Source: an uncultured Candidatus Saccharibacteria bacterium
Lineage (GTDB): Bacteria; Patescibacteriota; UBA1384; GWA2-35-9; CAYZGQ01
DNA length: 64,000 nucleotides
Direction of reading: 5' to 3'
Assembly (NCBI GenBank): GCA_964478135.1
Contig: CAYZGQ010000001.1
Coordinates: 3,365-67,364 of the forward strand
Positions 12,644 through 38,630 of this stretch are shown piece by piece. Each line of letters starts with the position of its first letter. Position 1 is the first letter of the stretch. The notes under the pieces are model-generated. The model saw only the letters and a list, made by a program, of their open reading frames with translations. It did not search any database and was not told the DNA's origin. The position numbers and the translations under genes are program-made.

Positions 12644-13207
12644 ATGCCACGGAGGGGACTTAATTATCTTCTTTTTAGTTTAGTTGTTGTTTCGGCGATT
12701 TTGATGATCCTTTTTTGGCGCAGGAGTCCCAAACAGCCAGTTGACCGGCTGGCCCAGGAGCAGAAAGCGGCCGTTCTCTTTACCAGCGCCAAGGAGGCCC
12801 AAACATCGAGAGACTTTAAAACCGCGGTTGCCCGCTATCAGGAAGCGATCTCGTTCAACCCGAATGAGCCGGTTTATTTTGAGTCGCTCGGAGTCGCCCA
12901 GTATAACATTAAGGATTACCGGGGGGCGATTGCCAGTTTTGAGCAGGCGCTCAAATTGACGCCCGGGAGCGCCTTTTTATGGAACGGTTTGGCCAACGCC
13001 GCTCGCGACAGCGGCGATCGCCAGAGAGCCTTTGAGAGCTACCGCAAGGCGATCGAGCTTGACCCGGGTTTTTTGGTCGGCTACACCAACTTGGCTTACC
13101 TTTACCGAGACCAAGGCGCGGTTGACCGGGCTAAGGAGGTAATCGCCGAAGGTCTGGCCAAAAATCCCGACTCGGTTGAGTTGAAAGACATTTTAAAAAA
13201 CCTATGA
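12644..13207 (+). CDS. TPR-repeat protein with N-terminal TM anchor
   Basis: N-terminal hydrophobic helix followed by about 4 TPR units (YQEAISFNPNEPVYFESLGVAQYNIKDYRGAIASFEQALKLTP ...). Its stop overlaps the next gene as ATGA. Confidence 0.6.
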   Translation: MPRRGLNYLLFSLVVVSAILMILFWRRSPKQPVDRLAQEQKAAVLFTSAKEAQTSRDFKTAVARYQEAISFNPNEPVYFESLGVAQYNIKDYRGAIASFEQALKLTPGSAFLWNGLANAARDSGDRQRAFESYRKAIELDPGFLVGYTNLAYLYRDQGAVDRAKEVIAEGLAKNPDSVELKDILKNL

Positions 13208-16200
13208 AACGTCATTTGATTAAAACTCTCGAACGTTTGCTTCATCTGCGGCGCCGGACGACAGGCAGAGTTCACGCCCATCTGGTTGGTCGATGGGGCT
13301 GGTATCGAATCTGGCACGAATTTCCTTTTCACCGCCAGGTTCATTTAACCTCTCTTATTTTGATAGTTTTTGGCACGCTCGGTTTGGTCTTGACAGCCAC
13401 TCGGCCGGCCTTGGCAACTGACTACACCGTCTCGACCAACTCGACTTGGTGCGACTCGGGCGATCTGCCGGCCTCAATCGGCAATCTGACAATTAATTCC
13501 GGCGTTACCCTGACACTCGGCGGGACATCTGGCAACGCGGTCAACGGCCAGAATACTGGCGGGACCGACGCCTGTTCTTATGAGGCGCCGAGTTCGGGTG
13601 TCAGTTGGACAATGACCGGGACAGGGACCTTGACGGTTAACGGCACAATCAAAGTTCAAAGCGAGATTTCCGGCTCAACTGGCGGCACAGTCAAAATAGA
13701 TTTTGCGACAGTGACAGTTGCTTCAGGAGGTAAAATTCATGCTGACAGCACGGGGTTTCTCTCATGTAACACATCAGGTTGTACTGGAGGCGGAGCAGGT
13801 GGAGGACAGTGGACCTCTGGCTATTACGGTGGCGGTGGGGGGCATGGCGGGAAAGGCGGCACCGGTCATATTACTAATGGAAAAGGAGGTTCGGTAAATG
13901 GTAATTCATTTGCTCCTGTGACACTGGGTTCGGGCGGAGCGGGAGGTTCTCAAGGGGCAGGAGGTGGAGCAGTTTATATTAATTCAAGTGGCACCGTTAC
14001 AGTTACAGGAACGGTATCCGCAAATGGTGAGGTAAGCAATAGCAGTGTTGGCGGAGGGGGATCTGGAGGGAGCATTTACATTACCGCCGCTACTGTTGCC
14101 GGCGCAGGGACTGTTACAACGACTGGGGGGGATGGTGGTAGCGCATCCGCTGGTGCGGGCGGAGGCGGTAGAGTTGATATTCGCTATTCGACAGCCAATA
14201 CCTTTAGCGTTGCCAACGCAACAGCCGCAACTGGTTCTACTGGCGTAGCTGGTGATGCTGGAACAATTATTTTTATTGATTCAACCAACAAGGATGGGTA
14301 TATCTACAAAACTTTTACATTCAGTGCGGCGCAAGGAATAGATACAAACTTAGCGACAACTACTGACGGAATATTTAATTTTCGCGATCTTACTTTAGGC
14401 GACGCTTCCAACACTGCAACTGTGTTAGCAATATCAACCGGAACAAGCCCCAATGGTAAAGGACCAACCCTCAATCTAACTGGAAACTTTACTTTAGCCA
14501 GTGGCTCAACCTTTTCAGCCAATGGCACGGGTTATTCCGGTGGTTCAACAACTGGCGTTGGGCCTGGGGGTGGAACCTGGGCTAGCGGGTTTTACGGTGG
14601 TGGAGGAGGGTATGGCGGAGCTGGCGCCACGGGGAGCTCCAGCTATGGTGTTGGTGGCCCTACTTATGGTTCAGCTTCAGCGCCAATTGATCTTGGTTCT
14701 GAAGGTGGAGGCGATCTAGCATCCTCATCGGGTGATGGCGGCGGCGCTATTAGAATCAATGCTACTTCAGGCACTGTTACTATCAATGGCACGATTTCAG
14801 CCAATGGTTCTGCTGGAGGCAGTAGTGTATCTGCCGGCGGTTCAGGCGGCAGTATCTATATTACAGCAGCGACGACCGCTGGCACTGGTTCAATTACAGC
14901 TAATGGCGGCGCTGGAGGTAGTGGCAGCGCTGGCGGAGGGGGCGGCGGTCGGTTGGGTCTTTATTATGTGACTGCCCAAAATCACACCGGTAGCAGGACG
15001 GCCAGCCTCGGGAGCGGCGGGACTGGCGGCTCGGCCGGCACGGTCACTCTCAAATCAATCCCAGCCGCTCCGACCCTTTCCTCTCCGGCCGACGCCGACG
15101 GGGTTTCAACCACGCCGGCTTTGCAGTTTTCAACCACTAATGCCGGCACGAATGAAAATGTTCAGTACTACATCCAGATTGACGACAATTCTGATTTTTC
15201 CTCGGTCACTCAAACGATTGACCAAACCGCCTCTCAAACCGGTTGGACCGGACAAGATCGGGCTAACGGCACGAGCGCGACCGCCGGATCAAGTTTTTAC
15301 GCCTCCTCGACCAGCGCCACTTTTACGGTCCAGACCGCTCTGACCACCAACACCACCTATTACTGGCGCGTTCGAGCCATTGCCTCGGGTGGATCGAATA
15401 TCTATGGCAGTTACTCGAGTTCTCGTTCGTTCGTGACCAACGACCCGCCCCAAGTCTCGATCACCAACACCCCGAGCCAGGATTCTTCCGGCAACATCGC
15501 GATCAACTACAATATCTGTGATACCAACCACTCGACGCTGACCATGCGGGTCCAGTTTACGACCAACAACTCGATCTACACGACCGTCGCCGCCGGGGCG
15601 CTCTCGGGCACCAACAGCTTTGGGTCGGTCACCGGCGTCTCGAGTAATTGCGCCTCGCCCAGCGCCAAGACAGTCACCTTTGACGTCTCGGCCGATTCTA
15701 ATGTCCCGGCCTCCTACTACTCGGCCGCCTCGGGAAACTGGAAAGTTCGCATCCAAGCCGACGATGGCATCGCCAACGGCCAGATCAACTCGACCGCCTC
15801 GTCCGCCTTTGAGCTGGACAACGTCTCGCCCGCTACCCCGACCCATTCTTCGCCGGCCAACGCCAGCTACACCAACGACACCACCCCGGATTTGACCGGA
15901 TCGGCCTATTCCGACGACACTACTCAAACCAATCTTCGGATTCAGATTGACGATAATTCGGATTTTAGTTCGGTCGCTGTTGACTACACCAAAGGCGCTT
16001 CCGGCGTGACCTTTACGGTCGGTCAGGCGGTCGGTTCGGGGACATACACCGCCGGATCGGCCGGTCAAACTTTAGCCGACGGGACATACTACTTTCGGCT
16101 GCGCTACACCGATTCAAAAGGCAATCTATCGAGTTATTCGACCGGCACCTCGTTTACCGTTGACGCGACTTCGCCGGTCGCGCCTAGCTCGTTCAATATT

Positions 16201-19200
16201 TTTGACACTTCAACCGGCTCTAATAATTCCCATCAGGTTGAATGGAACGCCGCTACCGAGGCAAACTTCAAAAATTATCTTGTCCTGCGTTCAACCGATG
16301 ACGTCAGTTATTCGACGCTCTCAACCATTACCGATTCAACCATCCGCAACTATCGAGACTCCAGCCTTGACTCGGCTACGACTTACTACTATAAGATTCG
16401 GACGACCGACCAGGCTGACACGGCGACCGATACGGCCGCCGTGTCGAACAAACCCGGCGCCCCGACCCTCTCGGCGATTTCTTCCGGCACGCCCGGGACC
16501 AACTCGGCCACCATTACTTGGACTTCAAGCGAAAACGGCAGTTCAGAAGTTCGACTCGGGACCTCAAGCGGCAGTTATGGTCTTGGCGTTCGGGGCAACA
16601 ATGCCGACTCGGCTACCTCCCATTCCCAGTTGGTTTCAAATCTCAATCCCAATACGACCTATTACTACATCGTTAGGTCTCGAGACGGCAGTGGACTGGC
16701 GACCACCTCGGCCGAGAATAGTTTTACCACCGCGGCCAAAGTTTCAGCCAGCTCTCTTGCCTCGAGCGTCAGTCACACGACCGCCACCCTGACTTGGAAC
16801 ACCACTGGCACCAACACCTCGAGTGTTGTTGACTGGGGAACCTCAAGCGGCAGCTACAGCCGATCAGACGGCGACGCCGACGCTTCAGAGACGACCCACT
16901 CGGTTACCTTGAAAGGACTAGCTCCGGGCACGACCTATTACTGGCGGGTCAACTCGACCGATTCAAACCTAAATGCCATTACCTCGACCGAGCAGAACTT
17001 GACCACGACCGCCAGACCGGCGATTTCATCAGTCTCATCCGGCACGCCCGGTCAAACCAGCGCCGCGATCACCTTTTCGACCGACCGGTCGGTCAAGGAT
17101 GTTTTTGTTGATTACATTGCTTCCTCAACAAGCGGCGCCTGCGCCAGTGTCTCGAATGCCAAAACGGTTTCGGGCGGGATCGCCGCCAGCGCCGGCACGT
17201 CCCACAGCGTCTCTTTAACCGGTCTTTCGGCCGGCACGACCCATCGGTTCAGAGTTCGAGTGATCGAGCTTGACGCTTCAGCTGAGAGCGCCAATCAACA
17301 GGTTCAAACGATTGATGACAACTCCGGCGCCTGCTACAGCTTTACCAGCGCGACCGACTCGACCGCTCCGACTATTTCCAATCTCGCTTCCGGCAACATC
17401 ACCAACACCTCGGCGGTTATCACTTGGGAGACCGACGAGCCGGCGACCGGCCTTGTTTCGGTCAGCTCTTCAAGCGGTTTTGGTTTTGCCAGCGGCAGCC
17501 AGACAACCGCCAACCCCTCGGCCAATAATCAGAAACAGACCGCCGTTATTACCGGGTTGACCAGAAACACAACCTACTATTTCTTGGCCCGGTCGGTTGA
17601 CGGTTCAAATAATGCCACGACTGCTCCTGAAGCTTCATTCACGACGACCGGCGACGCGACCGGTCCGGTTATTTCCGGCTTGACCGCAAGCTCGATCACG
17701 ACCGACGGCGCCCTCATAACCTGGACGACCGACGAGCCGGCCACGACTCAAGTCAACTATGGCCAAACGACCAATCTGGGCTCGTCCTCGGCCAAAGATG
17801 AAAAGCTTGATCGCAATCACCGAGTCACGCTATCCGGTCTTTCGGGCGCCACGCTCTATTACTTCCAGGTGGTTTCCCAAGACGCCAACGCTAACGAGAC
17901 CAAGAGCCCTGTTTCCTCGACCACCACCTTGACCACCCAGACCGTGCCGAGTGTCTCGAGCATCTCGCTGGGAGAGATTAGTTCAAAAACAGCGACTGTC
18001 AGCTGGAGCTCCAATCTCGCTGGCGATTCGTTCGTCGATTATGGTCTGACTTCGAGTTATGGTTCGCGTCAAGGTCGAGCTGATGACAGCCAAACCGCAC
18101 ACTCAATCACTCTCTCTGGCTTGAAGTCCTCGACCACTTATTACTTTCGAGTCAGAACAAAAGATTCAAACGGCAACGAAGTCATCTCGTCTGGTTCAAG
18201 CTTTACAACCGAGAGCTCGGAAGACGATGTCTCGTCTGACAAATTGGCCCCGGTCATCAGCGGCAATGAAGCCAGCCTCTCTGGTCTAACCGATACTCGA
18301 GCGACAATCAGCTGGACAACCAACGAGGAGTCAACCTCGAGGGTGGATTATGGTCTTGACCAATCTCTCAATCAGTCCCAAAGCGACGATACTTTTGTGA
18401 CCAAGCATGAATTGAAGTTGACCGGCCTTGAAGCGGGCAAGAAGTATCGTTTTCAAGTCTCGAGTCTCGATCGAAACAAGAACCGCGGCAAAGGGAGCGT
18501 TCAAGAGTTTACGACCGCCAAGTCTTCGGCCATTTCCGACGCTTCGCTCGTCACTCAAGAGCTCGATAAACTGATCCTTTCGGTTCAAACGACCGAGGCG
18601 ACCAAGGTGAGGGCTCTCTTTGGCGCCGGTTTGGACAGACTTGACTCCGAAGTTTCAAGTCTGGGCGCCGAGACCTCGAGCCACGCCTTTGTGATCGAGA
18701 ATCTCACTCCGGGGACGGCCTATTATTTTCAGTTTTCGGTTAAGGACAAGTTTGGTCAGGAAACGACCACACCGAGTTTTTGGAAGTTTGAAACTCGAGC
18801 CTTGCCGAAAATTACGGCCGTTAATGTAACCGACCAACAGGCGACCCAGGCGGTCTTGTTGGTTTCAGTCAACACTAAAGCCCAAGTGATCGCGGCTTAC
18901 ACCGATCTTAATAGCAAAAGCCGGAGCGTTGGCTCTGGAGCGCTGGCCGAAAAGCACGAAATTAGGCTGGACGGTCTGAAACCAGAAGCAACCATTCCAG
19001 TTGCCTTGACCGCGATTGACGCATCTGGCAATCAGGCCGTTTTTCAAACCAATGTTTCGACCACCGGCGATCGGTCCGCGCCCGAATTTCAAAAAATCGA
19101 GACCGAGATTATCGGCGGGAGCGGCAACAAAGGGGCGACGATCATCGTCTCGGCGGTGCTTAGCGAGCTGGCGACACTTAATGGTCAGGCCGGTCTGGCC

Positions 19201-19461
19201 GCCAGCAATCAGACGCCGATAACCACGCCCAAAAACGCCGCCGCTAAGGAACAGACATTGGTTTTTCGGAATCTGCCTTCTGGTCAGTTTGTTAAGTTTA
19301 AGCTGATAGCCGAAGATCCGGCAGGCAATGTCACAGAGTCGCCCGACATCACCACCTTTACCCCGGAGCCGAGTAAAAGCGCTCTGACCCTTATCACGAC
19401 TCAACTTGAAACTATCTTCGGCGGTCTGGGAAAAGGCCTTCAGTCTTTATTTGGCAAGTAA
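13204..19461 (+). CDS. giant secreted/cell-surface protein (2085 aa): two ~230-aa Gly-rich beta-helix-like repeats followed by an array of fibronectin-III-like domains
   Basis: N-terminal hydrophobic segment with an AxA site (RPALA). Tandem Gly-rich repeats (GGGxGG...SGGSIYITAAT x2). At least 10 FN3-like modules with recurring TTYYWRV/YYFRV/YYYKIR/YYFQV signatures. S/T-rich. Confidence 0.8.
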   Translation: MKRHLIKTLERLLHLRRRTTGRVHAHLVGRWGWYRIWHEFPFHRQVHLTSLILIVFGTLGLVLTATRPALATDYTVSTNSTWCDSGDLPASIGNLTINSGVTLTLGGTSGNAVNGQNTGGTDACSYEAPSSGVSWTMTGTGTLTVNGTIKVQSEISGSTGGTVKIDFATVTVASGGKIHADSTGFLSCNTSGCTGGGAGGGQWTSGYYGGGGGHGGKGGTGHITNGKGGSVNGNSFAPVTLGSGGAGGSQGAGGGAVYINSSGTVTVTGTVSANGEVSNSSVGGGGSGGSIYITAATVAGAGTVTTTGGDGGSASAGAGGGGRVDIRYSTANTFSVANATAATGSTGVAGDAGTIIFIDSTNKDGYIYKTFTFSAAQGIDTNLATTTDGIFNFRDLTLGDASNTATVLAISTGTSPNGKGPTLNLTGNFTLASGSTFSANGTGYSGGSTTGVGPGGGTWASGFYGGGGGYGGAGATGSSSYGVGGPTYGSASAPIDLGSEGGGDLASSSGDGGGAIRINATSGTVTINGTISANGSAGGSSVSAGGSGGSIYITAATTAGTGSITANGGAGGSGSAGGGGGGRLGLYYVTAQNHTGSRTASLGSGGTGGSAGTVTLKSIPAAPTLSSPADADGVSTTPALQFSTTNAGTNENVQYYIQIDDNSDFSSVTQTIDQTASQTGWTGQDRANGTSATAGSSFYASSTSATFTVQTALTTNTTYYWRVRAIASGGSNIYGSYSSSRSFVTNDPPQVSITNTPSQDSSGNIAINYNICDTNHSTLTMRVQFTTNNSIYTTVAAGALSGTNSFGSVTGVSSNCASPSAKTVTFDVSADSNVPASYYSAASGNWKVRIQADDGIANGQINSTASSAFELDNVSPATPTHSSPANASYTNDTTPDLTGSAYSDDTTQTNLRIQIDDNSDFSSVAVDYTKGASGVTFTVGQAVGSGTYTAGSAGQTLADGTYYFRLRYTDSKGNLSSYSTGTSFTVDATSPVAPSSFNIFDTSTGSNNSHQVEWNAATEANFKNYLVLRSTDDVSYSTLSTITDSTIRNYRDSSLDSATTYYYKIRTTDQADTATDTAAVSNKPGAPTLSAISSGTPGTNSATITWTSSENGSSEVRLGTSSGSYGLGVRGNNADSATSHSQLVSNLNPNTTYYYIVRSRDGSGLATTSAENSFTTAAKVSASSLASSVSHTTATLTWNTTGTNTSSVVDWGTSSGSYSRSDGDADASETTHSVTLKGLAPGTTYYWRVNSTDSNLNAITSTEQNLTTTARPAISSVSSGTPGQTSAAITFSTDRSVKDVFVDYIASSTSGACASVSNAKTVSGGIAASAGTSHSVSLTGLSAGTTHRFRVRVIELDASAESANQQVQTIDDNSGACYSFTSATDSTAPTISNLASGNITNTSAVITWETDEPATGLVSVSSSSGFGFASGSQTTANPSANNQKQTAVITGLTRNTTYYFLARSVDGSNNATTAPEASFTTTGDATGPVISGLTASSITTDGALITWTTDEPATTQVNYGQTTNLGSSSAKDEKLDRNHRVTLSGLSGATLYYFQVVSQDANANETKSPVSSTTTLTTQTVPSVSSISLGEISSKTATVSWSSNLAGDSFVDYGLTSSYGSRQGRADDSQTAHSITLSGLKSSTTYYFRVRTKDSNGNEVISSGSSFTTESSEDDVSSDKLAPVISGNEASLSGLTDTRATISWTTNEESTSRVDYGLDQSLNQSQSDDTFVTKHELKLTGLEAGKKYRFQVSSLDRNKNRGKGSVQEFTTAKSSAISDASLVTQELDKLILSVQTTEATKVRALFGAGLDRLDSEVSSLGAETSSHAFVIENLTPGTAYYFQFSVKDKFGQETTTPSFWKFETRALPKITAVNVTDQQATQAVLLVSVNTKAQVIAAYTDLNSKSRSVGSGALAEKHEIRLDGLKPEATIPVALTAIDASGNQAVFQTNVSTTGDRSAPEFQKIETEIIGGSGNKGATIIVSAVLSELATLNGQAGLAASNQTPITTPKNAAAKEQTLVFRNLPSGQFVKFKLIAEDPAGNVTESPDITTFTPEPSKSALTLITTQLETIFGGLGKGLQSLFGK

Positions 19462-21411: not shown

Positions 21412-23517
<2,106 letters not shown>

Positions 23518-23548: not shown

Positions 23549-23854
23549 ATGGCTCGATCAACCAGCACTCGTTCAATAAGCCAGCAGACCGTTCGTCACA
23601 TCGCTGGCTTGGCTCGACTTAAACTTTCAGACGAGGCAGTCAAACTTGCCTCAAGTCAGCTGTCAGTGATTTTGGGTCATATGGCAGATCTTGAACAGGT
23701 TGACACGACTGGAGTAGAGCCGATTGGTCAAATAGCTGATTTGTCCAATGTTTTCCAACCAGATGAGCCAGGTTCATGCTTAAGTCAGGAGCAGGTGCTG
23801 GCTCAAGTTAAATCAAAACAAGCCGGTCGGCTAAAGGTGCGGTCGGTATTGTAA
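23549..23854 (+). CDS. gatC: Asp/Glu-tRNA amidotransferase subunit C
   Basis: About 100 aa with a GatC-like core (VRHIAGLARLKLSDEAV...VDTTGVEP). Confidence 0.8.
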   Translation: MARSTSTRSISQQTVRHIAGLARLKLSDEAVKLASSQLSVILGHMADLEQVDTTGVEPIGQIADLSNVFQPDEPGSCLSQEQVLAQVKSKQAGRLKVRSVL

Positions 23855-23956: not shown

Positions 23957-25444
23957 ATGGCAGTACCAAAAACAATCGCCCTGGCTTACCGGGCGCTTCA
24001 AAAAAGAGACATCAGCTCGGTCGAACTGACGCGAGCTGTTCTCGATCAGATTAGGCAGTTTGATCCGCAAATCAAGGCCTTTCTTTATTTTGATCAAGAT
24101 CAGGCTATAACACAGGCTAGGGCGAGTGACAGTCGCAGACGCTCCGGTCAATCAAAAGGCATTTTGGACGGAATTCCGATCGCGCTCAAGGACGTTTTGG
24201 TCACAACTGACATGCCCACGACCGCCGCGTCCAAGATTCTGGAAGGCTTTATGTCAGCCTACGACGCAACAGTGGTTGCGAAACTTAGGTCCCAAGGCGC
24301 GGTACTAATCGGCAAGACGAACATGGACGAGTTTGCCATGGGTTCTTCGACCGAGAATTCGGCCTACGGGCCGACAAAAAATCCATGGGATCTAGGGCGC
24401 GTGCCGGGTGGATCATCCGGAGGCAGTGCGGCCGCGCTGGCCGCTGGAATGTGTCTGGCCGCGCTTGGTTCGGATACAGGAGGTTCAATTCGCCAGCCAG
24501 CCAGTTTTTGCGGCGTGGTCGGCTTTAAGCCGAGCTATGGCGCTGTTTCGCGCTACGGTTTAATCGCTATGTCGTCGAGTCTCGATCAGATCGGACCGAT
24601 GACCCAAACAGTAGCAGATGCTAAGATATTGTTTGAAGCTATCAAGGGTCAGGATCGGTCAGACGCAACGAGCGTTCAAATTAAAAGACCAACTAGGAGC
24701 AACCGTCAGGTTAAGGCAATAGGTCTTGCCAAAGAGTACTTTGGTCAGGGACTAGATTCACAGGTGAAACCATTGGTTGTCAGAGCGATTGAACTGCTTG
24801 CTCGATCAACCGGGGCAGATATTGTTGAGATATCTTTACCGAACGCCCGCTTTAGCGTCTCGGTCTACTACATTTTAATGTCGAGCGAAGTGGCCAGTAA
24901 TCTGGCGCGCTACGATGGAGTTAAGTACGGCTTGCAGATTCAAGGCGACACTTTGCTCGAGAGTTACCTTGAAAGCCGTTCCAAGGGTTTTGGTCAAGAG
25001 GCTAAGCGCCGGATTATGCTGGGTACTTTTTCTTCGTCAGCCGGCTATAGCGATCAGTATTACCAGAAAGCCCAGCTCGCGCGGGCCAAAATTAAGCAGG
25101 ACTTTGATCAGGCGTTCGAAAAGGTTGATTTAATCGCCGCGCCAGTCGCTCCAACTACCGCGTTCAAGCTAGGTGAAAAGGTTGACCAGCCTCTTCAAAT
25201 GTACCTTTCAGATATTTACACTATTCCAACCAATCTAGCTGGTTTGCCCGGTATTTCAATTCCTTGCGGTTTGGTTGAGGGTCTGCCTGTTGGTCTCCAG
25301 TTGATGGCTAATCGATTTGAGGACGAGTTTTTACTCGATATTGGTCAAAAATACGACCAGGCGCGCGGTCAGTTACCCGGTCCACCATATACTAGCGGTA
25401 CTAATGCCAAGGGAAGACAGATCAAAGTGAGATTAAAGTTATGA
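23957..25444 (+). CDS. gatA: Asp/Glu-tRNA amidotransferase subunit A (amidase signature family)
   Basis: Amidase signature GGSSGGSAAALAAG with the Ser-cisSer-Lys catalytic region. 495 aa. Confidence 0.9.
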   Translation: MAVPKTIALAYRALQKRDISSVELTRAVLDQIRQFDPQIKAFLYFDQDQAITQARASDSRRRSGQSKGILDGIPIALKDVLVTTDMPTTAASKILEGFMSAYDATVVAKLRSQGAVLIGKTNMDEFAMGSSTENSAYGPTKNPWDLGRVPGGSSGGSAAALAAGMCLAALGSDTGGSIRQPASFCGVVGFKPSYGAVSRYGLIAMSSSLDQIGPMTQTVADAKILFEAIKGQDRSDATSVQIKRPTRSNRQVKAIGLAKEYFGQGLDSQVKPLVVRAIELLARSTGADIVEISLPNARFSVSVYYILMSSEVASNLARYDGVKYGLQIQGDTLLESYLESRSKGFGQEAKRRIMLGTFSSSAGYSDQYYQKAQLARAKIKQDFDQAFEKVDLIAAPVAPTTAFKLGEKVDQPLQMYLSDIYTIPTNLAGLPGISIPCGLVEGLPVGLQLMANRFEDEFLLDIGQKYDQARGQLPGPPYTSGTNAKGRQIKVRLKL

Positions 25445-25893
25445 AAAAGCGACTGAACAATCAGCCTTCCTATCAAGAGAAAGTCTTTGACGCCTTGATT
25501 GGTGGAGTAGGCAAGATCGTCGGTTTAGTACGAATTAGCCCTAAATCGAGCAGACCGATCAAGTCAATTGATCGTTTGGAGATCACCACTCGCTGGCGTC
25601 AGATCGAGCAGAGTCATCGTTTAGGAGGTTCATCTGGGCTCAAGCAGGCGGTGATTGAAGCCGATAATCTGCTCGATAAGGCATTGAGAATGAAAGTTTC
25701 AGGCCAAACTATGGGGGAACGTTTAATTAACGCTCAAAGCTTAATAAGTTCTCAAGCCTATCAAGCCGCCTGGGAAGGACATAAACTGCGCAACCGTATT
25801 GTTCACCAAGACCAGAGCGAGGTGTTGAGTTTTGAGACAGAACAGGCGCTTAAGGGTTTCAAACAAGCTCTTCTCGAATTGGGAGGATTATGA
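25441..25893 (+). CDS. hypothetical 150-aa protein with HEPN-like RNxxxH motif, embedded in the gatCAB operon
   Basis: ATGA overlaps at both ends (gatA stop and gatB start). All-helical-looking sequence ending ...AWEGHKLRNRIVHQDQSE, which matches the HEPN Rx4-6H motif. Confidence 0.5.
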   Translation: MKKRLNNQPSYQEKVFDALIGGVGKIVGLVRISPKSSRPIKSIDRLEITTRWRQIEQSHRLGGSSGLKQAVIEADNLLDKALRMKVSGQTMGERLINAQSLISSQAYQAAWEGHKLRNRIVHQDQSEVLSFETEQALKGFKQALLELGGL

Positions 25894-27308
25894 ATCATTA
25901 CAGACCGATTATCGGACTTGAGATACACGCAGAACTGTCAACCAAGACTAAAATGTTCTGCCGTTGTCCCAACCCAATCTATCTTAGTAAAAAGGTTGAG
26001 ACTAGGCGGACTGATAAGACAAGTCAAGAAAAAAGGGCAAAATTAACGCCAAACACTCTTGTTTGCCCGGTCTGTCTTGGAATGCCGGGCAGTCTTCCAG
26101 TTATGAATGAGACTGCGGTGAAACTAACTATGCGAACCGGCCAGGCTCTTAACTGCACAATCGCCCAGTTTACCAAGTGGGATCGCAAGAACTATTTTTA
26201 TCCAGATCTACCTAAAAACTATCAAATCTCACAATATGATCTACCTCTGGCTTATGACGGATTTCTTGACTTGGAAGGAGCAAGCGGACAAGGCAAGATC
26301 AGGATCACTAGGATCCATCTGGAGGAAGACACCGGTCAATTGGTTCATTTATCAAATGGTTCCAGTTTGGTTGATTACAACAGAGCGGGCGTGCCTTTGA
26401 TTGAATTAGTGACGCAACCAGACATAGACTCGGCTGAACAGGCTAAGCAATTCGCTAAGGAGTATCAGCAGATTTTAAGAGTTTTGGCTGTTTCAAGCGC
26501 CGATATGGAGCAGGGTGAGATGAGAGTTGAGGTTAACGTGTCCCTAACGCGAATCAGCTCGAATCTCGATTCGAATCCAGCCGGTGTTGGGACTAAGGTG
26601 GAAGTTAAAAATTTAAATAGTTTTAGGTCGGTTGAGCGGGCGATTAACTACGAGATCAACCGACAGACTAAAATACTTGATTCTGGGATTAAGGTCGTTC
26701 AGGAAACAAGAGGTTGGGATGAGTCAAAGCAAAAAACATTCAGTCAGAGGGTCAAGGAAACAGCGGCTGATTACCGCTACTTTCCTGAACCAGATCTGCC
26801 ACCGATAGATACAACTAAAATTTCCCTTGACCCAATACCGGAGTTACCAATTAACCGTCGTCGTCGCTATATCGGTTTGGGGATTACCGATTCTGACGCC
26901 AAGGTGATCGTGGGCGATCGCAAAAGGGAGCAGATACTCGATCAAGTGATAACACAATCACCTAAAAGCGCCAAAAAAATAGCCAATTTTTTGGTCAATA
27001 AACCCCAGGCAGTTAATCTTGGAGTTAAAGAACTGACAAGAATCGCTCGGTTCTCGGCTCATCAGCAAAAGCAATCCTTCAAGGCTGGTCGGGCAATATC
27101 TCAAGTGAACCAAGACCGATTAGCCGGCTCGGGGCAGATCGTCAGTGCGCTTGATCGCGTATTCGATTCAAACCAAGACGCGGTCGATAAATACAAAGCT
27201 GGCAAAAAACAAGTCATCGGTTTTTTAGTTGGTCAGGTTATGTCAGAACTTAAAGGGCAGGCAGACCCTGGTTTGATCAGACAGGCAATTGAGAAAGCTC
27301 TCGAGTAG
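25890..27308 (+). CDS. gatB: Asp/Glu-tRNA amidotransferase subunit B
   Basis: N-terminus IIGLEIHAELSTKTKMFCRCPN is canonical GatB. 472 aa. SD GGGAGG upstream. Confidence 0.9.
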   Translation: MNHYRPIIGLEIHAELSTKTKMFCRCPNPIYLSKKVETRRTDKTSQEKRAKLTPNTLVCPVCLGMPGSLPVMNETAVKLTMRTGQALNCTIAQFTKWDRKNYFYPDLPKNYQISQYDLPLAYDGFLDLEGASGQGKIRITRIHLEEDTGQLVHLSNGSSLVDYNRAGVPLIELVTQPDIDSAEQAKQFAKEYQQILRVLAVSSADMEQGEMRVEVNVSLTRISSNLDSNPAGVGTKVEVKNLNSFRSVERAINYEINRQTKILDSGIKVVQETRGWDESKQKTFSQRVKETAADYRYFPEPDLPPIDTTKISLDPIPELPINRRRRYIGLGITDSDAKVIVGDRKREQILDQVITQSPKSAKKIANFLVNKPQAVNLGVKELTRIARFSAHQQKQSFKAGRAISQVNQDRLAGSGQIVSALDRVFDSNQDAVDKYKAGKKQVIGFLVGQVMSELKGQADPGLIRQAIEKALE

Positions 27309-27445: not shown

Positions 27446-30400
27446 TTGATCCCGCTGGCACAAGCAGGCCAGCTTTTTGGCTATTCAGCCGGTCATATGA
27501 ACTATTTAGCCCGGTCAGGGAAAATAATCGCTTTGAAACTCGGGGGTCAGTGGTACACGACTCGGGCGGCTGTTTCAGCCTACCAGGCCGGTCAACCCCA
27601 ACCGGAAAACCCGACCGGATTTATGTCTTTAGCCCAAGCGGCCAAGCAGTATGGCTATAGCGCCGGACATCTCAACCTTTTAGCCCGAGAAGGTAAGCTT
27701 GAAGCGGTGAAACTTGGGCGAAACTGGTACACGACCGAGCGCGCTATCGACCAGTACCGACAAGGCGTGCGTGAGATAGAATTAGTGCCAGATAGTCCTG
27801 ACCCGGCGCTCCAGATATCCCAGCCAGAAAATATTAATGTTAAAGTCAGGCCAGTAGCCAGTTACCAGGGATTTGGCATAACCGAAACCGATGATGACGC
27901 GCCAGGTCCGACCGGGGGATTTAGGCTCAAGTCAGTTATGGTCAGCCGTGGTTTTAAGCTCGGGTTGATCACACTTATAGTGTCTGGGCTGGCTTTTGGA
28001 CTGGGACGACTGGTTCAAGGCTGGCGCACGGGTGAGTTGAATGGACTGGGGCCATCTGGCATCGCGGCTTATTTGTTTGGTGGAGAGTTGGCCCAAGGAG
28101 ATCGTCTGGGCTCGGGTTTTCTCGGCAGTATCACACGAGAGCGAGCTCAATCCGATACGCCTGGGGTCAGACCCGAGGCGAGCCCTAGTCCGGACACTGT
28201 GGTCAATAACACGACAGTCAACAACTATAACCAGACCGTTAACAACGACAATCGTCAGGTGACAAACATCAGTACAACCAAAACTGCTAAAGATATTGTT
28301 GGAGAGTTATCCGACCCGCAGGTGAGTGATGACATCACGATTAACTCGAGCAAGGCTGGTTCGTTTAGTCCAAGCGGTAACACTACTGCCTTGACGGTCA
28401 AGCAAAGTTCAGCCAGTCCCTCGGAAACCCCGATCGTTAAGATTCAAAACGCGTCTGGGGCTAACCTTGTCACAGTTGATTTTGAAGGCAATTTAGGTCT
28501 GGCTGGTGGATCTAGATTGGAAATAGGCGGTCAGCAAATAGGAATTGCCAATCTAGCGGATGGATCTTCTATCGCGTCTCTTTCCGGTAGTCAAACTCTG
28601 ACTAATAAAACTTTGAGCGCGGGCGTTATCTACCAAGGATCGGCGATTAGCCCGAGCTACGGCGGGACCGGTCTAACATCAGCTCCCAGCAACGGCCAAC
28701 TCTTGATCGGCAATGGCTCGGGTTATACTCTGGCGGCTCTAACGGCTGGGACGGCAATTAATGTGACCAACGGTTCTGGTTCAATTACGATCGCTAATTC
28801 AGGTGTTACCTCGCTATCTGCCGGAACCGGCATCGCTGTTAGCGGTTCGTCGGGCGCGGTTACACTGACCAATTCGGGCGTGACCGCTCTGACCGGCACA
28901 ACCAACCAGGTCAGCCTGTCTGGTTCAACCGGTTCGATCACCATCTCAACGCCCCAAAACATTCATACCGGCGCCAGTCCAACCTTTTCAAGGCTCAATT
29001 TATCCGAGGCGTCCAATCAGTTGGTTCTTCAGTCAAATAGTGTTACAGGCAGTCTGACCTGGACGCCGGTCACATCCAATAAAACGATCACTCTGCCTAA
29101 TCTCACCGGAACCGCTTTTTTGATTGATGGAGGCCAGACGATCAGCTCTGCTGTCTGGAACGCTAGCGCTATCGGCCCGAGCTATGGCGGGACTGGTCAG
29201 ACGACCCTGGCCAAGGGTGATATTTTGTATGGCTCGGCGACTGATATTTGGTCGCGACTGGCTGTTGGCAGTATTGGTTATGTCCTCCAGGTCTCCCTAG
29301 ACGGCGTTCCAGAATGGGCGACTATTTCTTCCTTATCTGTTGGTAATGCTGACACGCTTGATTCGCTTGATTCAGCGGATTTTTTGCGCGCGACCGCCTC
29401 GGACACTTTTGAAGGAGTTAATTCAAGAACCCTGACCATTCAGTCTGATCTTTCCTCAGGCGCGAGGACGGTTGACCTTTTGACGATCAGCCAGGCGAAC
29501 GATCCAACCAATAACTTTACGACTGGCAATCTCCTAACAATTGCCCAACTCGACACCGGTTCGTCGGCCGATGCCTTAGAACTTAATCAGACTGGATCTG
29601 GTAAGGCTATTAACATTGTTTCAGGCGAGCTGGCGACAGCCGGCAACATCGTTCAAACCGGGGCAACCACGCTGTCAACCGGCACGGGCGCGGTCTCGCT
29701 CGGGGGTGACACGACCATCGCTACTGGAAAGAACTTGACTCTCGCGTCCGGGACAGGCACTTTTAGTCAGATTTTTAGTAATACGACCGGTACTGGAGCA
29801 AACTGGAATATCACTAACTCTGGTTCTTCTGGGACTAACACTGTTGGCGGGATAGGATTAGTGTTGGCTGGAACCGCCAACACGACTGGTTCGAATGTGA
29901 TTAATGCTATTAATTTTTCCAATGTCCCTCCGGCGACCAATAATTCTTATTACGCCCTGAATGTCGGAACCGGCTTTACTGATATTGTACGCTACAATGG
30001 CGCCCAGTTGATCTCTGGCTCGGGTGTCATTCAATCGGCCGCGCTTTCTGGTAACTACACTGGTGTTACTGGAGTTGGGATTTTATCCACCGGCACCTGG
30101 AATGCAGACACAATCATCTTTGCCAAGGGCGGCACGGGCTTAACAGCCACGCCCAGCAATGGCCAACTCTTGATCGGCAATGGCTCGGGTTACACTCTGG
30201 CCGGCTTAACCGGCACTACCAATCAGATCAATGTCGCTAGCGGGGCCGGTTCGATCACCCTCTCAACTCCCCAAAACATCCATACCGCCGCCAGTCCAAC
30301 CTTTGCCGGTTTGACTTTGTCCGACTTGACCCCTGGTTCTTTGGTCTTTGCCGGCGCCGGCGGGGTGATCAGCCAGGACAACGCCAAGTTCTTCTGGGAT

Positions 30401-32896
30401 CAGACAAATACTCGATTGGGTCTCGGGACAAGTTCGCCACTTTTTCCGATTCATGTTGTTAGATCGGGCGGTGGCGGGACGTTGAATTTTGACACTTACG
30501 CCGGTTCTGGACTGGGCAACAGCGCCATTCAAGGTCGGCGGGCGGCCGGAACTTTGGCCAGCCCGACAGCCACTCTGTCGGATATGACTCTGTTCGATCT
30601 GCTTGGGTCTGGCTACGACGGTTCAGCTTTCACCGGACAGATCGCTTCGATACGCATGCAAGCCAATCAGAATTTTAGCCCGACCAGTCAGGGCACCAGG
30701 ATTGTCTTTTTGACCACGGCCAATGATTCGACGACCGCGACTGAACGGCTGCGGATCAAACACAATGGCGATGTGGCAATCGGCAACGGCTCGACCGATC
30801 AGATATTATTTGGTTCGACCGGCTCGGCGGTCTTCAACGAACAGGGCAATGATGCCGATTTTCGGGTCGAGGGCGACACCGACGCCAATCTATTGTTCAC
30901 CGACGCTTCGGCCGATGTCTTGGGTGTCGGCACCGCGACCTTCGAAGCCAACACCCGCAAGATGGAGGTGAGATACACCGATACCGCGACCTCCGGAGGC
31001 ACCTTTTCAACGATTAGATTGCTTTCGGACATCAATGCTCCTTCTAACTCCACGGCATCCCATTTTGGTCTAGGAACGACTTTAAGAACCGCGAGCGGCA
31101 ACGCTTCCAACTACACCGACTCCACGACAGGTATTAAGGCGATGAACTTTGTCGTCCAGCACCGAGGCACAGGCACGGTTACTAGAATGACAGGCTTGGG
31201 CGGCAATGTCACCAACAGCTCAAGCGGTACGATTACGACTGCCGAGAGCATCGTGGCTGGGGTTGACCTGACCTCAACCGGTCCGATTACTACTTGGAAC
31301 GCCCTGCGGGTCTTCGCGCCCTCTATCACTGGCTCTGGGGTGCTGACTAACGCTCGCGGGCTTTACATCAGTAACATCACAGGGGCCTCCACGCAGAATC
31401 TAGCTATCCTGACAGAAGGGGGCGGAGTAGTCTTTAATGAAAACGGCACGGACAGCGATTTCCGGGTCGAGGGCGACACCGATGCCAATCTATTGTTCAC
31501 CGACGCTTCGGCTGATCGGGTTGGTATAGGGACAAACACCCCTTCGCTCAAACTTCACGTGGTGGACAACTCTTCAACTTCGGCTATTTTCCAGCGCAAC
31601 AGCACTGCCACCGGTTCGAGTGTTGGCTCAACGGTTTTTTTGGATAATTTGGACACCACGACCAACAATGGAGCTCGTTTGATTTTTAGAACCAACGATA
31701 CTGGCGGCGCAACCAGGCAAGCGGCTGGAATAGGCTCGCTCGTAACCGCCCGGGGTGCTAGCAGTGTGACTGGCGATCTGGTATTCCTGACCAACAACAA
31801 CTCAACCGGCGTTTCCGAGGTTGCTCGGTTAACCGGAGCGGGCGCGCTTGGCATTGGTGAGTCGCCGGCGGCCAATATGAAGCTTGATGTCGCTGGCCGG
31901 GTTCAGATTAATCTGGCCGGAACCCAAACCTCGGTTGCCTTGTGCGGTAGTCACCCGGCTGGCGGCGGGGCCTCGGTTTCCGATGTCGAGATTGTTGACT
32001 GCACCGGCACGCCGGCGGCTGACTATGCCGAGATCTATCCGGTTTCAAACGATGTTGAATACACTGATTTAGTGGCTATCGGACCGGATTCGGTTAAAAC
32101 CACCGATCAAAACTCGATTCAAAGGCTAGTCAAAGCTACGATCGCCAATCAAGCCAACACTTTAGGAGTCGTTGTTGACAACTACGGCGATTTCTCCTCG
32201 GTCGGTCACAACATTAAAGGTTCTGATAATCCCAAACCGGTCGCGCTTTCAGGCCGGGTGAGAGTGAAAGTTTCCGGCCAGTCGGGCGCGATAGCGCCCG
32301 GCGATTATCTGACCGCCTCGTCCAAACCCGGTCGGGCGATGAAGGCGACCTCAAGCGCCAAGATAGTTGGAGTGGCTTTGGGATCATTTAGCGGCGACGA
32401 GGGGACGGTAATGATGTTTGTCAGCAATTTCTGGTATAATCCGTCTTCGGGCGAGAGTATTCAGGGTACCCAAACTGCATCCTACCAGGCGCTCGAAGTT
32501 GCCGGCCTTTTGCGAACGAATCTTTTGGAGGTTGCCGGGCCAGCCGAGTTCAAAGGTAGTTTAGTTGTCTGGGGTGAAACAACCTTTAAGGCACCGGTTG
32601 TGGTTCAAAAGACGCTGACTGCTAAAGAAAAGATCGTGTCCAAAGGTGACCTTGAGCTCAAGGGCAATCTTGTTCTAAACCCCGACATTAAAGGGTCAGC
32701 CTTGCCAGTGACTAAGGGCGCGACCAGCCTTGAGGTCGTGTTTAGCAAGCCCCAAGCTGACACAAGCTACTTGGCTTTCGTCACGCCATCCCAGCCGATC
32801 GGTTTTGGCGTTACCAAACAATCTGACAAAATGATCGTTACCTTTGAGGCCGAGGCGCCGGAAGGATTAATCCTGGATTGGCTGATAGTCAGATGA
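27446..32896 (+). CDS. giant membrane-anchored protein (1816 aa): two N-terminal excisionase-type HTH (HTH_17-like) repeats, one TM helix, tail-fibre-like S/T/G-rich ectodomain
   Basis: Repeats LAQAGQLFGYSAGHMNYLARSGKIIALKLGGQWYTTRAAVSAYQAG and LAQAAKQYGYSAGHLNLLAREGKLEAVKLGRNWYTTERAIDQYRQG fit the excisionase/MerR-type HTH pattern. TM helix at about aa 175-195. The ectodomain has GPSYGGTG and (V/I)GIGT...KLHV tail-fibre-like motifs. The ORF track start is a TTG and the true start is uncertain. Confidence 0.75.
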   Translation: MIPLAQAGQLFGYSAGHMNYLARSGKIIALKLGGQWYTTRAAVSAYQAGQPQPENPTGFMSLAQAAKQYGYSAGHLNLLAREGKLEAVKLGRNWYTTERAIDQYRQGVREIELVPDSPDPALQISQPENINVKVRPVASYQGFGITETDDDAPGPTGGFRLKSVMVSRGFKLGLITLIVSGLAFGLGRLVQGWRTGELNGLGPSGIAAYLFGGELAQGDRLGSGFLGSITRERAQSDTPGVRPEASPSPDTVVNNTTVNNYNQTVNNDNRQVTNISTTKTAKDIVGELSDPQVSDDITINSSKAGSFSPSGNTTALTVKQSSASPSETPIVKIQNASGANLVTVDFEGNLGLAGGSRLEIGGQQIGIANLADGSSIASLSGSQTLTNKTLSAGVIYQGSAISPSYGGTGLTSAPSNGQLLIGNGSGYTLAALTAGTAINVTNGSGSITIANSGVTSLSAGTGIAVSGSSGAVTLTNSGVTALTGTTNQVSLSGSTGSITISTPQNIHTGASPTFSRLNLSEASNQLVLQSNSVTGSLTWTPVTSNKTITLPNLTGTAFLIDGGQTISSAVWNASAIGPSYGGTGQTTLAKGDILYGSATDIWSRLAVGSIGYVLQVSLDGVPEWATISSLSVGNADTLDSLDSADFLRATASDTFEGVNSRTLTIQSDLSSGARTVDLLTISQANDPTNNFTTGNLLTIAQLDTGSSADALELNQTGSGKAINIVSGELATAGNIVQTGATTLSTGTGAVSLGGDTTIATGKNLTLASGTGTFSQIFSNTTGTGANWNITNSGSSGTNTVGGIGLVLAGTANTTGSNVINAINFSNVPPATNNSYYALNVGTGFTDIVRYNGAQLISGSGVIQSAALSGNYTGVTGVGILSTGTWNADTIIFAKGGTGLTATPSNGQLLIGNGSGYTLAGLTGTTNQINVASGAGSITLSTPQNIHTAASPTFAGLTLSDLTPGSLVFAGAGGVISQDNAKFFWDQTNTRLGLGTSSPLFPIHVVRSGGGGTLNFDTYAGSGLGNSAIQGRRAAGTLASPTATLSDMTLFDLLGSGYDGSAFTGQIASIRMQANQNFSPTSQGTRIVFLTTANDSTTATERLRIKHNGDVAIGNGSTDQILFGSTGSAVFNEQGNDADFRVEGDTDANLLFTDASADVLGVGTATFEANTRKMEVRYTDTATSGGTFSTIRLLSDINAPSNSTASHFGLGTTLRTASGNASNYTDSTTGIKAMNFVVQHRGTGTVTRMTGLGGNVTNSSSGTITTAESIVAGVDLTSTGPITTWNALRVFAPSITGSGVLTNARGLYISNITGASTQNLAILTEGGGVVFNENGTDSDFRVEGDTDANLLFTDASADRVGIGTNTPSLKLHVVDNSSTSAIFQRNSTATGSSVGSTVFLDNLDTTTNNGARLIFRTNDTGGATRQAAGIGSLVTARGASSVTGDLVFLTNNNSTGVSEVARLTGAGALGIGESPAANMKLDVAGRVQINLAGTQTSVALCGSHPAGGGASVSDVEIVDCTGTPAADYAEIYPVSNDVEYTDLVAIGPDSVKTTDQNSIQRLVKATIANQANTLGVVVDNYGDFSSVGHNIKGSDNPKPVALSGRVRVKVSGQSGAIAPGDYLTASSKPGRAMKATSSAKIVGVALGSFSGDEGTVMMFVSNFWYNPSSGESIQGTQTASYQALEVAGLLRTNLLEVAGPAEFKGSLVVWGETTFKAPVVVQKTLTAKEKIVSKGDLELKGNLVLNPDIKGSALPVTKGATSLEVVFSKPQADTSYLAFVTPSQPIGFGVTKQSDKMIVTFEAEAPEGLILDWLIVR
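30849..30918 (+). repeat. intragenic repeat copy A (about 70 nt, about 90% identical to copy B exactly 600 nt downstream)
   Basis: ttcgggtcgagggcgacaccgacgccaatctattgttcaccgacgcttcggccgat versus the copy at 31449-31518. Encodes DFRVEGDTDANLLFTDASAD in both. Confidence 0.8.
31449..31518 (+). repeat. intragenic repeat copy B
   Basis: Near-identical to 30849-30918. The flanking sequence is conserved only at the protein level. Confidence 0.8.
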
Positions 32897-34597: not shown

Positions 34598-35275
34598 CTA
34601 GCTGGCTGGCGAGGGGCTTGGGCTAGCGGCTGATTGGCCAGTTTGACGGGCGAACACAATGTAACGTTTGACGAGCGTGCCCGGAGGCCAAGAGGTTTGG
34701 AGAGTTATGGTTTTGTCTTTCGGATCTTTGGGCGTTGGGTCTAGAACCGAGAAGTCGTCAGAGGCGACCACCTTCTTGCCAAAGACCTCGTATTGGTAGG
34801 CGACATTTTTGTAATAGACGATGAACCGATCGCCTTTGTCGAGTTTGTCGATACTTTTGAAGATTTCTTTAAGTTCTGGTTTACCCGGGAAGTTTTTAAA
34901 GTAGCTCGAGTGACCGAAGATGTACATATTTCCCAGTTGGTCCGGTTTCTGGCTACCTTTTAGATGTGCGACACCGAGCTGGGAGGTGATTTTTTGATAG
35001 ACCGGTTCGTTAGCCCCGTCAACATCCGCGATAATTGGAACCCGGATGCTGATTTTTTCGATCTCAAGACCAAATTCTTTGATCTCGACTGGTTCTGGCA
35101 GGGAACTTTGATTAAGCCCTGAAGGAGAGGCAGAGGGTTGAACGATTGATACGTTCAAGCCTGACTTTACCAAAGCAAGCGTTCCGGCAACAACCATAGC
35201 GCTTGCTAGTCCAATACCAAGAATAACTAGCTTTTTTTGAGTAGTCACTTGTGGCAAGACAGATTGTGGGTTCAC
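34598..35275 (-). CDS. sortase-family transpeptidase homolog with Ser in place of the catalytic Cys (the protein has no Cys)
   Basis: N-terminal TM anchor. Conserved sortase His (MYIFGHSSY). The TLxTC motif reads KTITLQTSWPPG (codon tct). Conserved Arg (LVKRYIVFARQ). The GTG start overlaps the upstream LPKTG gene's stop as GTGA. Confidence 0.7.
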   Translation of the reverse strand: MNPQSVLPQVTTQKKLVILGIGLASAMVVAGTLALVKSGLNVSIVQPSASPSGLNQSSLPEPVEIKEFGLEIEKISIRVPIIADVDGANEPVYQKITSQLGVAHLKGSQKPDQLGNMYIFGHSSYFKNFPGKPELKEIFKSIDKLDKGDRFIVYYKNVAYQYEVFGKKVVASDDFSVLDPTPKDPKDKTITLQTSWPPGTLVKRYIVFARQTGQSAASPSPSPAS

Positions 35276-38577: not shown

Positions 38578-38630
38578 TATCCCTCCTTTTGAGCTCAAGA
38601 TATATTTAATTAATTTGTAATTCTGTTTTT

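Follow-up and report, generated by a model that had tools for sequence, protein, structure and literature searches.

To our knowledge, bacterial HEPN domains are known almost wholly as weapons: toxins of toxin-antitoxin pairs, effectors of abortive infection, and nucleases of CRISPR systems (Cas13 or ancillary). We describe a gene (called X below) located between gatA and gatB in a 64,000-nucleotide stretch of DNA (the window; contig CAYZGQ010000001.1, positions 3,365 to 67,364) from an uncultured Candidatus Saccharibacteria bacterium, which has the motif and a predicted fold of the same kind, yet appears to be a core gene of a whole phylum, passed on vertically and translationally coupled to the amidotransferase that yields Gln-tRNA and Asn-tRNA. 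The HEPN fold and motif themselves are known; what we found undescribed is their occurrence in an unannotated family that is inherited vertically throughout a phylum, is coupled to gatA almost without exception, carries a membrane anchor, appears to be needed for growth, and has a variant residue stripe with an invariant upstream His.

Across the HEPN superfamily, the Rx4-6H motif is found at the end of helix 3 or the start of the loop between helices 3 and 4, the motif Arg is usually followed by Asn, Asp or His, an acidic Ex3[KR] element precedes the motif in many families, and helices 2 and 3 are often separated by an insert, which in most families is poorly conserved (PMC3710099). In the AF0298 family (PDB 2hsb), the motif His is typically missing, and a second conserved His N-terminal to the motif marks a possible alternative active site (PMC3710099). 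This AF0298/UPF0332-type 'HEPN-T' family is structurally closest to X, at ~10–12% identity and with no significant sequence match; its members are archaeal or bacterial, soluble and linked to MNT genes, whereas X appears membrane-anchored, is confined to the candidate phyla radiation (CPR), is linked to gatA, and mostly keeps the canonical His. The solved structures closest to X also include HepT/HEPN toxins. Those of the HepT/MNT-HEPN type (DUF86; PDB 5yep, 7ae2, 8xdj) are mobile and dispensable, with an MNT antitoxin and an AMPylation Tyr; X has none of these features, is inherited vertically, and is apparently needed for growth.

Transmembrane (TM) HEPN proteins have been predicted in bacteria, as a DUF4145 group with a 'WP' TM helix and an Abi2/Swt1 group with a TM helix (PMC3710099, section 15). 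X resembles both in its single N-terminal anchor followed by a cytoplasmic HEPN domain, and shows weak affinity to Swt1-like and related Pfam models; unlike them, it has no extra N-terminal globular domain, and those groups have not been reported beside gatA or as a phylum core gene. Membership of the WP-helix DUF4145 group was ruled out, because 'WP' occurs in only 13 of 267 N-terminal regions of the X family and Pfam DUF4145 (PF13643) gave no match beyond 1 of 32 members at E 0.049, nor was it among the top families for 150 members. In eukaryotes, Ire1 and C6orf70 each cross the membrane once and expose HEPN to the cytosol, and tRNA is a frequent HEPN substrate, as for PrrC/RloC (PMC3710099); a preprint likewise describes tRNA as a substrate, for Cas13 (bioRxiv 10.64898/2025.12.03.690598). 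The eukaryotic HEPN RNases (Las1, Swt1, the KEN domain of Ire1/RNase L, and C6orf70) are like X, as we read it, in placing HEPN in core RNA processing or surveillance and not in conflict; unlike X, they are eukaryotic, multidomain and unrelated to aminoacyl-tRNA amidation. GatC and the fungal mitochondrial GatF/Gta3 are small helical proteins encoded or assembled with GatA and GatB, and such accessory subunits differ between lineages. The Gta3 Pfam model appeared in our Pfam scan, and X showed no homology to the amidotransferase subunits GatC, GatF/Gta3 or GatD/E (Pfam, NCBIfam); X differs from GatC and GatF/Gta3 in its predicted HEPN fold and membrane anchor, and gatC is still present upstream of it.

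Position of X behind gatA

X is a 150-residue open reading frame (ORF) with an ATG start at 25441–25893 (+), between gatA and gatB. The sequence-only reading had described 4-nt overlaps on both sides, and the coordinates and the Pfam identities of the neighbours GatA and GatB agree with it: the X ATG (25441–25443) shares an ATGA with the gatA stop TGA (25442–25444), and the X stop TGA (25891–25893) shares another with the gatB start ATG (25890–25892). The features of the locus are as follows.

21427–23517 (+): ligA, encoding an NAD-dependent DNA ligase and opening the conserved ligA-gatC-gatA-X block (696-residue ORF, identified by inspection)
23549–23854 (+): gatC (Pfam GatC, E 5.5e-14)
23957–25444 (+): gatA, amidase subunit, its stop overlapping the X start (Pfam Amidase, E 1.2e-152)
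25441–25444 (+): ATGA overlap of gatA stop and X start (sequence read directly)
25441–25893 (+): X, N-terminal helix plus predicted HEPN domain, member of a Patescibacteria-specific family (ORF, homologs, AlphaFold2)
25471–25533 (+): N-terminal helix, residues 11–31, VFDALIGGVGKIVGLV, amphipathic or weakly hydrophobic (AlphaFold2)
25573–25878 (+): predicted HEPN domain, residues 45–146, with helices 45–61 and 63–85, insert 91–97, and helices 104–122 and 130–146
25663–25689 (+): helix-2 acidic motif, D75 plus D79-x3-R83, Ex3[KR]-like (conservation)
25702–25725 (+): conserved insert G88-x-T-M-G-E-R-L (G88 in 192/197 and R94 in 189/197 sequences; E93 as 154 Glu plus 33 Asp)
25771–25809 (+): helix-3 catalytic-type stripe W111-x-x-H114-K-L-R117-N118-R-I-V-H122-Q (Rx4H, Asn after Arg, invariant His upstream)
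25890–25893 (+): ATGA overlap of X stop and gatB start (sequence read directly)
25890–27308 (+): gatB (Pfam GatB_N, E 6.5e-110; GatB_Yqey, E 6.9e-16)

The identity of ligA in the window was supported by tblastn, in which the window ORF matched ligA in loci L007, L008, L014 and L017, and LigA Pfam domains were present upstream of gatC-gatA-X in loci L007, L008, L094, L096 and L097. A promoter and terminator scan of the gatC–gatB stretch revealed no convincing + strand terminator. Judged from the sequence, X is predicted to share one mRNA with gatA and to be translationally coupled to it by the 4-nt overlap, and in the lineage of the window to be coupled to GatB too.

We scored two sets of loci by identical criteria: a genome set dominated by Saccharimonadia, and a metagenome set of divergent CPR members with long N-termini. 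Upstream, gatA was found on the same strand within 1.2 kb in 74 of 75 genome-set loci (one further upstream) and in 60 of 62 metagenome-set loci; downstream, gatB was found within 1.2 kb in 78/79 genome-set versus 0/60 metagenome-set loci. Where the flank was long enough, in 80 genome-set loci from as many species-representative contigs, X always had the same gat position. For the junctions, the in-frame start codon closest to the gatA stop served as the X start, a choice biased towards short distances; so defined, the gatA–X junction was overlapping in 57/73 genome-set loci (38 of the 4-nt type) and 31/65 metagenome-set loci, and was at most 30 nt in 68/73 and 62/65, respectively; the X–gatB junction was overlapping in 40 of 78 genome-set loci and at most 30 nt in 61 of 78. 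The order ligA-gatC-gatA-X recurred in annotated examples from Portnoybacteria and other lineages, and no conserved gene was detected downstream of X in the divergent set (largest cluster 8/67, strands 34/33).

The invariant pairing is gatA followed by X, and the double overlap in the window is a Saccharimonadia-type elaboration. X had been described as inserted within the gat operon; it is better described as an ancestral operon member across the radiation, with gatA and not gatB as its invariant partner. Conservation of the gatA-X-gatB arrangement in other genomes had been proposed as a check: gatA is directly upstream in 134/137 sampled loci, and gatB adjoins X in some lineages only. The co-occurrence with GatCAB that an extra subunit should display is found in the linkage to gatA, adjacency to gatB being lineage-specific.

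The lineage nearest the window (L001 812–3634; also L002 and L003) has the order gatC-gatA-PPIase-X-(542 aa)-gatB, the peptidyl-prolyl isomerase (PPIase) matching Pro_isomerase. The 542-residue protein between X and gatB in these loci shows a weak caspase match (Peptidase_C14, E 1e-4, just above the gathering score). Gaps of ~0.6–0.7 kb between gatA and X in L014, L017 and L019, and of ~2.9 kb in L015, fit one or more inserted genes. In five divergent-group loci (L127, L134, L135, L136 and L142), the gene lying convergent to X encodes what on visual inspection resembles a CCA-adding tRNA nucleotidyltransferase, which is probably a coincidence, though tRNA-related; a putative RNase HII, likewise recognised by eye, follows X in L140, L171, L174 and L176, again probably by coincidence. 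At L123 1524–7772 (and in L146), a 219-residue paralog with an intact AHKLRNQIAHE is encoded between a sigma-70-like regulator plus a 424-residue protein and two VirD4/TraD-like ATPases; this setting may be a conjugative or type IV secretion element, and nothing else hints that the family occurs in mobile surroundings.

Family, predicted fold and conserved residues of X

X is a real gene of an unannotated family restricted to Patescibacteria (CPR). Its homologs reached E 6e-32, an exhaustive HMMER search of 1.84 billion cluster representatives returned 1,457 clusters at 50% identity with E<=1e-3 (219 with E<=1e-10), and a protein identical to X was found on contigs of three independent sequencing runs, all of which places the ORF beyond chance. 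Furthermore, at least 582 contigs of species-representative genomes carry relatives, as counted with a single narrow peptide pattern. A profile search of a 5.8-billion-protein set matched 2,044 proteins; among the best 120 of these, none had a Pfam domain, and all were unnamed or called 'hypothetical protein' apart from one stray 'transposase' label. Family members are ~115–215 residues long, and those with a named source come from Saccharimonadales/Saccharibacteria, Portnoybacteria, Berkelbacteria, Nomurabacteria and the 'Patescibacteria group'. Apparent occurrences outside CPR, in metagenome-assembled genomes labelled Binatia, Verrucomicrobiia, Acidobacteriota and others, were rejected as probably mis-binned or mislabelled, their GC content and gatA/gatB identities being equal to those of Saccharibacteria loci.

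AlphaFold2, run on the single chain with a 32-sequence alignment as input, modelled X as all-helical (helices 11–31, 45–61, 63–85, 91–97, 104–122 and 130–146), with a mean predicted local distance difference test score of 91 and scores of 93–98 over residues 41–150. The model agrees with the all-helical character proposed in the sequence-only reading, and the HEPN-type assignment made there is supported by fold, motif placement and conservation. The structure search proposed for comparison with HEPN families was carried out with Foldseek, which ranked HEPN families first, with weak E-values. Among 150 family members, 26 sub-threshold Pfam matches fell in six families of the HEPN clan (Swt1 ×9, RiboL-PSP ×7, Cthe_2314 ×4, Ymh ×3, pEK499_p136 ×2, Apea ×1). 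The family profile matched no HEPN entry among PDB sequences, returning only spurious RanGAP1 matches at E~0.25.

The sequence LRNRIVHQ corresponds to residues 116–123 (nt 25786–25809) and contains the RNxxxH form of Rx4-6H, as had been noted; it had also been placed at the end of the protein, but 27 residues follow it. R117-N118-R-I-V-H122 closes the helix 104–122, as the HEPN definition requires, and the insert between helices 2 and 3 is the short helix 91–97. We calculated conservation from 197 phmmer-derived sequences only, leaving out the genome loci because these had been retrieved with a pattern covering the motif itself. D75 and H114 were present in 197/197 sequences, W111 and R117 in 196/197, N118 in 195/197, G88 in 192/197 (97%), R94 in 189/197 (96%) and H122 in 185/197 (94%). 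The RNxxxH motif is therefore conserved in its Arg (99.5%) and Asn (99%), whereas its His is not the best-conserved one, H122 falling below the invariant H114 and D75. H114 was kept in all 275 sequences of the larger alignment. D79 was found in 182/197 sequences and Lys or Arg at position 83 in 235/275, and D75 and D79-x3-R83 are both on helix 2; the latter, in which the acidic residue is Asp, not Glu, is a candidate counterpart of Ex3[KR]. Specific to the family are the conserved insert G88-x-T-M-G-E-R-L and the invariant D75 and H114, the latter one helical turn before R117.

We examined the N-terminal segment by 19-residue Kyte-Doolittle hydrophobicity (KD19), with a cut-off of 1.6 for a TM helix. 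The cut-off was reached in 195 of 267 family members (73%); KD19 was 1.48 for the window protein versus a family median of 2.71. Among the TM members, the ten residues after the helix contained on average 3.4 Lys or Arg versus 1.1 in the ten before it, and the excess after the helix was observed in 173 of the 195, indicating by the positive-inside rule an N-out/C-in orientation with the HEPN domain in the cytoplasm. The 72 non-TM members, including the window protein, have an amphipathic helix (VFDALIGGVGKIVGLV in the window protein) at the anchor position. Since the anchor is kept as either a TM or an amphipathic helix, membrane association of the family seems to be maintained by selection. 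In 27 of the 72 non-TM members, [W/L]PF[R/K] ends the N-terminal helix, versus xPF in 6 of the 195 TM members. The PF dipeptide is ~2-fold above shuffles in the N-terminal regions of the non-TM subgroup (275-sequence alignment, residues 11–36 of the window protein), and the window protein has RISPKS where other non-TM members have [W/L]-P-F-[R/K]. Several members share F-D-x-[IL]-x-G-G-[IVL]-G-[KR], a pattern that points to a specific contact more than to a generic anchor.

Candidate functions of X

The genetically tractable Southlakia epibionticum has a putative ortholog of X. In its published Table S1, SEML1_0537 is GatC, SEML1_0536 is GatA (510896–512299), SEML1_0535 is a 'hypothetical protein' of 420 nt (510480–510899), and SEML1_0534 is GatB (508969–510480) (PMC10633639, Wang et al. 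2023); by these coordinates SEML1_0535 overlaps gatA by 4 nt and gatB by 1 nt. It is flagged as core family = 1 and Patescibacteria-enriched = 1 (Tables S1/S2), and in the transposon insertion sequencing (Tn-seq) screen its hidden Markov model (HMM) calls were GD/GD/ES, with normalized reads of 126.6 -> 5.9 -> 2.8, whereas non-essential neighbours keep hundreds to thousands of reads (PMC10633639). Its published auto-label, 'DUF4145 domain-containing protein', is a language-model-type name and not a Pfam match, and the main text mentions HEPN and gatA nowhere (PMC10633639). The ECOD fold name for SEML1_0535 parallels the Pfam clan containing HEPN. The entry 1wty is a HEPN protein. These lines in two supplementary tables are the only prior trace of the family: our literature search found no paper linking HEPN with GatB, Saccharibacteria or, relevantly, CPR, and no bacterial HEPN counterpart with a core or essential role. 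Table S1 has no GlnRS or AsnRS entry (PMC10633639), which means that GatCAB serves both pathways in Southlakia. RNases Y, J, III and P are listed there (PMC10633639), and a role for X as substitute for a missing membrane RNase Y or E was therefore rejected.

X is probably a near-essential core housekeeping gene. The reading we prefer, with confidence evenly divided for and against it, is that X is a domesticated, membrane-tethered HEPN factor of RNase type that does housekeeping work with GatCAB or tRNA. X would be a dimeric, metal-independent HEPN endoribonuclease or an RNA-phosphate-binding module; HEPN endoribonucleases need no metal, leave a 2',3'-cyclic phosphate and form a composite active site when they dimerise. 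Held at the inner membrane face and produced in constant proportion to the amidotransferase, X would hold or act upon RNA involved in indirect aminoacylation, the likeliest targets being tRNA-Gln/tRNA-Asn or the transamidosome, and would be a housekeeping factor, not a conflict-system toxin. For X itself, RNase activity (or RNA or phosphate binding), dimerisation, a tRNA substrate, and a physical or functional coupling to GatCAB are all properties that we infer. An active RNase would be a bacterial case of HEPN domesticated for core metabolism linked to translation, much as eukaryotes have done in Las1 or Ire1; a GatCAB partner would change the picture of transamidosome subunits in roughly a quarter of bacterial diversity. 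Either way, one 'Patescibacteria-enriched, essential, unknown' gene of the only Tn-seq screen in the group receives a predicted fold and a testable hypothesis. A bolder version, which we consider unlikely, makes X a fourth transamidosome component: a domesticated membrane HEPN nuclease, one-for-one with GatA at the acceptor end of tRNA-Gln/tRNA-Asn, that uses a variant active site of H114, R117 and N118 to cull mis-acylated (Glu- or Asp-) or damaged tRNAs escaping amidation, or passes them to GatCAB. If true, this would constitute a translation quality-control step without known counterpart in other bacteria.

Several results weigh against the preferred reading. X had no significant match in Pfam, in NCBIfam or, by phmmer, among PDB sequences, no member of the family (150 examined) reached a Pfam gathering threshold, the best being HEPN_Swt1 at E 0.0034, and HEPN membership is accordingly proposed from the predicted structure and the motif. 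H122 has been replaced approximately six independent times in a neighbour-joining tree, in one clade of nine and in singletons, and at least three H122-less genes are still located between gatA and gatB. These replacements mean that canonical HEPN catalysis is not a requirement throughout the family. (A single loss of H122 in one subclade had been considered; the same tree gave ~six losses instead.) SEML1_0535 is a putative ortholog by synteny, size, overlaps and fold label, not by sequence, and its loss of Tn-seq insertions may stem from polarity on gatB, which is essential, or from the HMM caller smoothing across neighbouring sites. Finally, a few members are found away from gatA: P0025 (L095 1500–4555) overlaps the end of a DHH/DHHA1 phosphoesterase gene after glyS, and the members in L123 and L146 are among VirD4/TraD-like ATPase genes. 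The neighbourhood of P0025, with glycyl-tRNA synthetase (glyS) and DHH/DHHA1, is still tRNA- or nucleotide-related.

The strongest competing reading makes X a non-catalytic subunit with an accessory or tethering role: a fourth, lineage-specific GatCAB partner whose HEPN fold binds tRNA, nucleotide or GatA and organises the transamidosome at the membrane without cleavage. Translational coupling and a gene order kept over class-level divergence are typical of subunits of one complex, H122 is dispensable in ~6 lineages, and the membrane anchor, TM or amphipathic, is under selection. Binding-only HEPN domains, however, usually lose the motif (PMC3710099), whereas X keeps R117, N118, H114 and D75 at 99–100% in an active-site-like pattern; gatB adjacency is missing in most CPR classes (0/60), and a few members are found without gatA. 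We regard this rival as possible, with more doubt than belief. Rather unlikely, in our view, is a general Patescibacteria RNase for RNA processing or decay at the membrane, its place after gatA being a frozen accident that provides co-expression only. The intact HEPN motif and the cytoplasmic, membrane-tethered layout, as in other predicted bacterial TM-HEPN proteins (PMC3710099, section 15), would suit such an enzyme, as would the terminal position that X has in most CPR classes, where the genes after it vary, and the exceptions that adjoin glyS-DHH or other genes. Yet gene order is rarely kept over deep divergence without functional reason, and gatA is directly upstream in 134/137 sampled loci; moreover, Southlakia has RNases Y, J, III and P, leaving no obvious gap.

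The sequence-only reading had allowed for a toxin-like factor, and our results disfavour that option: no antitoxin accompanies X, the family was not found on phages, plasmids or viral contigs, the gene is inherited vertically, and insertions are lost in Tn-seq. A HEPN toxin or abortive-infection effector that acts alone and has settled in a housekeeping operon would agree with the HepT/HEPN toxins among the closest solved structures, and with the paralog among VirD4/TraD-like ATPase genes in two metagenome loci, possibly a mobile element. By tblastn, however, X had zero matches in 50,697 phage records and 72,556 plasmids and none in 2.9 million IMG/VR viral contigs, and PADLOC yielded no significant or meaningful model match. 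No annotated X locus contained an MNT antitoxin gene or another conserved small partner. Position 123 is Glu or Asp in 260/275 members and position 124 is variable, Tyr not being among its top residues, so the RX4HXY motif with its AMPylated Tyr, two residues past the His in HepT/MNT toxins, is absent from the family; nor does X show the patchy mobile-element distribution of those toxins, having a fixed chromosomal position in 134/137 loci and the same gat position in 80/80 of the genome set. Insertions in Tn-seq were depleted, not tolerated. We judge the toxin explanation very improbable, and retain the housekeeping factor working with GatCAB or tRNA as the preferred reading.

Other features of the window

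An Rfam search over the whole 64 kb gave no family at the gathering score, and thus no tRNA, rRNA or riboswitch in the window. The peptide-chain release factor at 38679–39587 (−) is only 302 residues long, and its PCRF match starts from profile position 43, so that the N-terminal part is missing or very short; a prfB-type frameshift at 39587 was considered and rejected, the upstream sequence showing no obvious site of that type.

Downstream of gatB, a 1,816-residue ORF with a TTG start (27446–32896, +) has at its N-terminus an excisionase-type HTH_17 domain within an apparent tandem duplication of ~50 residues (…GYSAGH[ML]N[YL]LAR.GK…WYTT…). After HTH_17, ~1,700 residues are without a Pfam match and rich in Gly/Ser/Thr/Asn repeats; a DNA-binding-type helix-turn-helix fronting an apparent giant surface protein is an odd arrangement. 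A probable giant cell-surface protein of 2,085 residues is encoded at 13204–19461 (+); it has at least seven Pur_ac_phosph_N/fn3-type repeats (Pfam E 9e-62) and is preceded by a small TPR protein (12644–13207). At 34598–38598 (−), a sortase gene (34598–35275) is overlapped by that of a 1,108-residue CarboxypepD_reg-domain protein (35272–38598), and the two resemble a sortase-substrate pair.

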